The position numbers and the translations under genes are program-made. The notes beneath the pieces are model-generated. The model searched no databases, was not told the DNA's origin, and saw only the letters and a list, made by a program, of their open reading frames with translations. 9,740 bases of DNA from Escherichia coli (GTDB lineage: Bacteria > Pseudomonadota > Gammaproteobacteria > Enterobacterales > Enterobacteriaceae): NCBI RefSeq assembly GCF_003334765.1, contig NZ_QOWT01000059.1; one strand, 5' to 3'. Below, piece after piece: positions 78 to 990 of the stretch. How positions within the stretch are numbered: the first letter of the stretch is position 1; every line of letters starts with the position of its first letter.

Positions 78-990
78 ACCGCGCTCTTGATGTCAGACTC
101 CCTGAACAGTTCTCGATAATCAGGAAACTCAGAGCGCATTATCCTGTGGTCACACTCTGCCATGTGTTCGGGGTTCATCGCAGCAGCTACAGATACTGGA
201 AAAACCGTCCTGAAAAACCAGACGGCAGACGGGCTGTATTACGCAGCCAGGTACTTGAACTGCATGGCATCAGCCACGGCTCTGCCGGAGCAAGAAGCAT
301 CGCCACAATGGCAACCCGGAGAGGCTACCAGATGGGGCACTGGCTTGCTGGCAGACTCATGAAAGAGCTGGGGCTGGTCAGTTGCCAGCAGCCGACTCAC
401 CGGTATAAGCGTGGCGGTCATGAGCACGTTGCTATCCCGAATCATCTTGAGCGACAGTTCGCCGTAACGGAACCAAATCAGGTGTGGTGCGGTGATGTGA
501 CCTATATCTGGACGGGTAAGCGCTGGGCGTACCTCGCCGTTGTTCTCGACCTGTTCGCAAGAAAACCAGTGGGCTGGGCCATGTCGTTCTCGCCGGACAG
601 CAGGCTTACCATGAAAGCACTGGAAATGGCATGGGAAACCCGTGGTAAGCCCGTCGGGGTGATGTTCCAGGCGATCAAGGCAGTCATTATACGAGCAGGC
701 AGTTCCGGCAGTTACTGTGGCGATACCGGATCAGGCAGAGTATGAGTCGGCGTGGAAACTGCTGGGATAACAGCCCAATGGAGCGCTTCTTCAGGAGTCT
801 GAAGAACGAATGGGTGCCAGCGACGGGCTATGTAAGCTTCAGCGATGCAGCTCACGCAATAACGGACTATATCGTTGGATATTACAGCGCACTAAGACCG
901 CACGAATATAATGGTGGGTTACCACCAAACGAATCAGAAAACCGATACTGGAAAAACTCTAACGCGGAGGCCAGTTTTAGTTGACCACAA
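78..990 (+). mobile_element. IS911-like (IS3 family) element, 3' portion only; 5' part displaced by the IS30 insertion; right boundary approximate
   Basis: Contains an IS3-family OrfB transposase reading frame (see pseudogene 80..984). The stop at 982..984 is followed by GTTGACCAC, which resembles the IS911 terminal repeat as I recall it, but the expected terminal TTCA is not present, so the end may be slightly truncated or my recollection of the terminus is imprecise. Confidence 0.75.
80..984 (+). pseudogene. IS911 OrfB-type transposase (InsO-like), N-terminally truncated by IS30 and frameshifted
   Basis: ORF 146..745 (frame 2) encodes ...[62 protein letters not shown]. Homology then continues in frame 1 from 673 as [47 protein letters not shown]...NAEASFS to the stop at 982..984. 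The frame switch lies within 668..672, in the conserved HSDQG region of IS3-family DDE transposases. The frame-2 reading also extends upstream of the ATG at 146 to about position 80 (...[13 protein letters not shown]). Confidence 0.85.

Follow-up and report, generated by a model that had tools for sequence, protein, structure and literature searches.

IS911, a member of the IS3 family, is the reference element for copy-out/paste-in transposition and for programmed -1 frameshifting. The catalytic D,D-35-E residues of its family are established for retroviral integrases and for IS3-family transposases alike. By the ISfinder convention, an element takes the name of a reference element when the two share roughly 95% or more DNA identity. 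Escherichia coli K-12 harbors no intact IS911, and the copy located in KpLE2, the island that includes the fec genes and is rich in insertion sequences, is split by IS30 (PMC3032704, PMC5379014). In the K-12 reference annotation, this copy is insO (b4623, “IS911B”), a pseudogene joined from three fragments, and a yjhV pseudogene directly follows IS911B-1. IS911A (insN, b4587) of the CP4-6 prophage is also split by IS30 (PMC9333248), likewise just past the orfA part. The left fragments of the two copies measure 335 bp (IS911A) and 334 bp (IS911B), and IS30 is inserted in opposite orientations; IS911A differs further in its location and in having a right fragment of 429 bp that ends before the site of the lesion considered here.

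The window analyzed in this work, a 9,740-nucleotide stretch of an E. coli contig (NZ_QOWT01000059.1), is the fec region (fecIRABCDE) of a KpLE2-type island of the E. coli chromosome. Its layout (Table 1) is based on the PGAP annotation of Nissle 1917 and on the K-12 reference. Window positions 1-1400 are 100% identical in many E. coli chromosomes, including those of Nissle 1917, ATCC 11775 and S88, and a place covering at least 80% of this segment is found in 2,115 of the 5,426 complete genomes; over positions 1-5400, the window and Nissle 1917 differ at 5 positions. With an IS fragment on one side and an IS1 end on the other, the fec operon is bracketed by IS remnants. The first codons of the IS30 transposase (MRRTF) are translated from bases 15 down to 1 of the minus strand, and in Nissle 1917 PGAP terminates the IS30 transposase at the junction that matches window 77/78. 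The order IS30/IS fragment/yjhV/fecE is found on an IncF plasmid too.

Table 1. Features of the window, including the segments of differing resemblance within the orfB fragment
Feature	Position	Strand	Basis or remark
IS30 left end	1-77	-	terminal inverted repeat and first five transposase codons
IS911/ISEc52-like IS3-family orfB fragment	78-992	+	3' three-quarters of the element
orfB 5' part, original frame	78-667	+	translation, NF033516, ISEc52/IS911 alignment
Mosaic segment	78-246		resembles IS911
Mosaic segment	247-355		resembles ISEc52
Mosaic segment	382-472		resembles neither; 16 substitutions in 91 nt, one amino-acid change
Mosaic segment	473-960		resembles ISEc52
Lesion, CAGGC for CAC AGC (His-Ser)	668-672	+	alignments, motif scan
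orfB 3' part, -1 frame relative to the 5' part	673-984	+	translation, NF033516
Premature TGA of the upstream frame	743-745	+	ORF 146-745
Degenerate right inverted repeat (IRR)	957-992	+	comparison with the IS911 IRR
yjhV-like gene fragment, right flank outside the IS	about 995-1324	+	K-12 and PGAP annotation
fecE, fecD, fecC, fecB, fecA, fecR, fecI	1882-9427	-	
ykiE-like small ORF, 22 codons	9564-9632		upstream of fecI, as in K-12 and REL606
IS1 end, terminal repeat	about 9666-9740		upstream of fecI, as in K-12 and REL606

On the right flank, a 137-aa ORF (911-1324) begins inside the IS in the third frame, crosses the IS end at 992 and enters the yjhV-like fragment. The PGAP call is limited to the final 85 codons (1067-1324) and describes either a hypothetical or an NAD(P)-binding domain protein; a scan of these 85 codons against NCBIfam produced no match. 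The ORF is probably a remnant of the gene that received the IS.

The first-pass annotation described the fragment next to IS30 as an IS911 OrfB transposase inactivated by a frameshift at its HSDQG motif, and the coordinates it assigned (78..990 for the extent of the fragment; 667, 668-672, 673 and 745 for the lesion and its consequences) are all accurate. Frame 2 (codons from 77+3k) is transposase-like through GVMF, as had been claimed, reading ...GKPVGVMF with the F at 665-667 and continuing for 25 out-of-frame codons up to the premature TGA. Frame 1, in which a TAA is located at 646-648, does resume at 673, where it begins with DQGSHY and runs through ...NSNAEASFS to the natural orfB stop at 982-984. 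The 5' part of orfB lacks its own start codon and comprises an HTH_21-like region and the first half of the rve core. Both halves match the IS3-family model NF033516 (NCBIfam), the ORF 146-745 covering profile positions 105-277 (E=4e-50) and the ORF 742-984 covering positions 305-368 (E=2.5e-20), and the frame pattern is therefore not due to chance.

Alignments with ISEc52, IS911 and the corresponding locus of strain N61 reveal a single indel within the orfB of the window, namely, one base absent between 669 and 670, which bears out the 1-nt deletion proposed as the cause. The missing base adjoins a substitution at 670, and the lesion falls in the HSDQG motif, two codons ahead of its Asp. At this site, the intact sequences read TTCCACAGCGATCA and the window reads TTCCA-GGCGATCA; in terms of codons, ISEc52 and IS911 have TTC CAC AGC GAT, whereas the window has TTC CAGGC GAT. 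The alignment against intact IS911 had been set beforehand as the check on the claim, and IS911 indeed carries CACAGC, unlike the window. The only further indel, an extra A near the 3' end of the ISEc52 copy, belongs to the reference and not to the window.

When the lost C is restored, residues 131-229 of the protein (fragment numbering) match the Pfam domain rve (E=2e-30), and the lesion corresponds to residues 198-199, inside this domain. A search of sequences with solved structures aligned the protein with the catalytic core of HTLV-2 integrase, with GDVT/GDVT, HSDQG/NTDNG and ER in register and the catalytic Glu 36 residues after the second Asp. The fragment thus contains an rve (DDE, D,D-35-E) core that fits the IS3 model, in which, by comparison with known D,D-35-E enzymes, we take the DDE triad to consist of Asp 494-496, Asp 673-675 and Glu 781-783. 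Because the frameshift lies between the first and the second Asp, the first Asp is kept, whereas the second Asp and the Glu are out of frame. A ribosome translating in the orfB frame would read 25 nonsense codons before the stop, and any product would contain only the first Asp of the triad.

The frameshift is accompanied by other damage. In the Nissle 1917 locus, IS30 is inserted 5 nt downstream of the A6G frameshift site of the IS911-like element, and an AC dinucleotide is duplicated on both sides of IS30, for which a 2-bp target duplication is typical (PMC9333248). Beyond IS30, and so apart from orfB, lie orfA, the slippery A6G site and the promoter of the IS. The IRR shows mismatches to the IS911 IRR at 4 of 36 positions (968, 979, 989 and 990), all of them common to K-12, REL606 and N61; the left repeat (IRL) is outside the window, at ~2524-2559 of the Nissle 1917 extract L001. 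The element ends at CA 991-992, in agreement with the 5'-TG...CA-3' termini of the IS3 family. Given the IS30 split and the degenerate IRR, the frameshift is one of several inactivating changes and not the sole one.

The insertion of IS30 at the identical AC, 5 nt past the A6G run, occurs in two orientations. In the window and Nissle 1917, the minus strand encodes the IS30 transposase; the plus strand does so in N61, in the Klebsiella quasipneumoniae plasmid pKA1-2 and in the E. coli plasmid p89_MLI108-3 (the junctions, window 77/78, are at ~2018/2019 in extracts L004, L008 and L009 and at 2541/2542 in L010). As noted above, both K-12 copies are split after a left fragment of 334-335 bp, in opposite orientations. 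This pattern suggests either that the IS911 frameshift window contains a natural hot spot for IS30 or that an inversion occurred in situ.

The distribution of the lesion was assessed by searching 20,395 records, drawn from the 5,426 complete E. coli genomes, for exact 70/71-mers. The CAGGC form of the window was detected in 495 records (70-mer), the CAAGC form of K-12 in 1,710 (70-mer), and the intact CACAGC with ISEc52-type flanks in 1,462 (71-mer). Among the records listed, the intact 71-mer occurs at up to 13 places in one chromosome, which is consistent with the intact, multi-copy form being, apparently, the active one. The two frameshifted forms together account for ~2,200 records, that is, the lesion is heritable and shared by independent assemblies. 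The frame is broken where intact homologues are uninterrupted, the hallmark of a pseudogene, and existing annotation already reflects this: PGAP describes the Nissle 1917 feature as [quoted passage not shown], and fragments 2 and 3 of the K-12 insO share one base, 4509479, the A homologous to window 670. A literature search on the insO/IS911B pseudogene returned genome-comparison papers, none of them on the frameshift itself, and prior knowledge therefore rests on the K-12 and PGAP annotation. Accordingly, the frameshift is already known, being annotated in reference genomes, and the lesion is an ordinary one, old, widely shared and located in a multiply disrupted transposase pseudogene.

The reading that we favor, with a probability of about 0.95, is that of an old, inherited, non-programmed frameshift in a decayed transposase of the IS911/ISEc52 lineage that is dead in several ways. 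With orfA, the promoter and the slippery site lost and a premature stop present, the sequence suggests that no functional product is made. It appears very unlikely that ORF 146-745 instead encodes a domesticated protein of 199 aa, a dominant-negative or regulator of IS911/ISEc52 transposition that might be expressed from an outward promoter of IS30. Such a role would fit the persistence of the fragment in ~2,200 records and the finding that truncated derivatives of IS3-family transposases without the catalytic domain still bind IS ends; however, in OrfAB it is the orfA portion, missing from this ORF, that supplies the DNA-binding HTH and the leucine zipper (PMC2909936). Furthermore, the K-12 and REL606 copies have none of the sequence up to window 197, GTG 146 included, so the ORF is not conserved, and the lesion site itself gained a further substitution. 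The retention of the fragment is simply explained by linkage to fec and recent common origin, with 2 sites differing between the window and K-12 over positions 473-1100. We attach similarly little weight to a broader proposal that the remnant is not inert, whereby either the 199-aa ORF would damp IS911/ISEc52 transposition in trans, or the remnant and the IS1 end would jointly form a recombination handle moving fec between chromosome and plasmid. If the recombination-handle version were true, the CACAGC/CAAGC/CAGGC states would serve as a lineage marker for the fec module.

The relation of the lesion to the programmed frameshift of the family was also considered. The ancestral orfA part, ...TTAAAAAAGGCTAC, is present beyond IS30 in Nissle 1917 (identical to the window over 1-1400), and its A AAA AAG site, at the end of orfA, precedes the IS30 junction by 5 nt and is outside the window; the orfA and orfB parts are now about 1.2 kb apart. 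Since the orfA part can still be seen across IS30, the ancestral element presumably had a programmed -1 site at the orfA/orfB boundary, and the first-pass annotation correctly separated the lesion from that site. A second recoding event, in which slippage by -1 at 668-672, during translation or transcription, would restore a full-length OrfB as ...VMFQGDQG..., has next to no plausibility. A -1 shift would indeed reunite the frames, and -1 frameshifting is used elsewhere by IS3-family elements, but no X XXY YYZ heptamer occurs in the orfB frame over 77-745, no homopolymer of at least 5 within 640-700, and an Rfam scan of the whole window matched no family; on these grounds, a programmed or recoding site was ruled out. 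Moreover, the intact multi-copy relatives have no frameshift at this place, orfA, the promoter and a start codon are lacking upstream because IS30 intervenes, and in K-12 and B the fragment is missing its initial 120 nt. Finally, although assemblies often contain spurious single-base indels, a sequencing or assembly error concealing a true CACAGC with a single open orfB frame, the outcome of resequencing that would have overturned the initial claim, is ruled out as practically impossible by the record counts (495 with CAGGC and 1,710 with CAAGC, from many laboratories and including K-12 MG1655 and REL606), by the site not being a homopolymer and by the lesion being a deletion plus a substitution, not merely a dropped base.

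A separate observation concerns the slippery site of IS911 copies regarded as “intact”. The copies in REL606 (extract L007, 9090-10257) and EC14 (L003, 541-1708), annotated by PGAP with “programmed frameshift” as WP_085948656.1, have five A's at this site, not six (TTAAAAAGG). In these copies, the orfA frame reads ...ENEILKRLPRS* and orfB is in the +1, not the -1, frame; they may themselves be defective or use another recoding event.

The assignment of the fragment to IS911 holds at the level of type and requires refinement. Over the orfB part, identity to ISEc52 is 96.1% (78-988) and to IS911 94.3%, so that the label of simply IS911 was set aside: ISEc52 is the closer intact relative overall, and the fragment is mosaic (Table 1). 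The names in use differ as well, the K-12 reference having IS911B and the PGAP orthologues IS3-family or ISEc52-family. ISEc52, an intact multi-copy element, has lesion flanks identical to those of the window and an OrfB that is alike except for a few residues; it differs in having CACAGC, that is, an intact HSDQG, and a complete orfA with the A6G site, in a slightly shorter OrfB C-terminus (...RYWKKL*), and at 8 sites within 78-246, where the window is IS911-like. IS911 has the same organization and an OrfB with HSDQGSHY, and shows one mismatch to the window across 78-246, but it is intact at the lesion site and differs from the window at ~50 orfB sites, in addition to the IRR positions given above. 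The patch 382-472 is distinct not only from IS911 and ISEc52 but also from the K-12 and REL606 copies, and its sole amino-acid change is Tyr to His. Because the substitutions in this patch are nearly all synonymous, they point to exchange with a constrained IS lineage, not to decay in place, and the patch resembles a tract acquired by gene conversion, with a third IS3-family relative under functional constraint as the donor.

The fec-adjacent locus exists as several recombinant haplotypes. The K-12 insO is orthologous to the fragment in the window, with the same yjhV/fecE flank, the same 1-nt deletion and the same four IRR mismatches. The differences are that insO has CAAGC, without the A>G change, that its fec-adjacent copy starts at window 198, behind a 327-bp IS600 remnant and IS30D, and that it is IS911-like over 247-472, where the window is ISEc52-like and carries the unique patch. 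The fec-adjacent copy of REL606 similarly starts at window 198 behind IS600 and is IS911-like up to 472. The combination of IS30, the IS fragment and a yjhV-like ORF with the intact CACAGC is found in N61 (L004), pKA1-2 (L008) and p89_MLI108-3 (L009). Among these, the loci of N61 and p89_MLI108-3 are fec-adjacent, and in pKA1-2 aph(6)-Id and aph(3'')-Ib, not fec, come after the IS30/IS-fragment/yjhV piece. The N61 locus resembles IS911 to about window 753 and the window from 783 onward, and has another lesion, an internal stop equivalent to window 282.

In REL606 (L007, 9000-14830), the yjhE-adjacent IS911 and the frameshifted fec-adjacent fragment are separate, lying ~3.8 kb apart; the intervening DNA holds a full IS600 and a BCCT transporter gene. 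In K-12 (L005, 7126-9802), fragment 1 of insO is the left IS911, and fragments 2 and 3 are the fec-adjacent copy. Given the two separate elements in REL606, the K-12 insO may be a chimera of two IS copies joined by deletion.

These comparisons bear on the origin of the three states of the site. At this fec-adjacent locus, K-12 MG1655 and the B strain REL606 read CAAGC (TTCCAAGCGATCA), a pure 1-nt deletion, whereas the window and Nissle 1917 have CAGGC (TTCCAGGCGATCA). Through the K-12/B intermediate, the lesion resolves into a 1-nt deletion of the His-codon C followed by A>G in the lineage of the window, and we infer that the order CACAGC to CAAGC to CAGGC is the simplest series. According to this scenario, the His codon of F-H-S-D-Q-G would have lost its C in an old event that was then inherited, and the next base would have changed from A to G later, in an already dead gene. 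The deletion may predate the IS30/IS600 rearrangements that differ between K-12, B and the lineage of the window. CACAGC is intact where IS30 occupies the same site in the opposite orientation, in N61 and the two plasmids. A reconstruction of the sequence of events (frameshift, IS30, IS600 and inter-copy recombination) drew on K-12, REL606, N61 and the two plasmids, and on this comparison the frameshift may have come before or after the IS30 insertion. Because the fragment is mosaic, the lesion possibly moved between haplotypes by gene conversion, and such conversion between IS copies, instead of strict vertical descent, could have spread it.

The biological weight of the finding is very small, one more decayed IS in an IS-rich fec island. 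For annotation, the ORFs 146-745 and 742-984 are to be treated as a single pseudogene and not listed separately as “hypothetical” or “DDE integrase” genes. The CACAGC, CAAGC and CAGGC states, combined with the IS30/IS600 arrangement, make a handy marker of fec island history in E. coli lineages and in plasmids.
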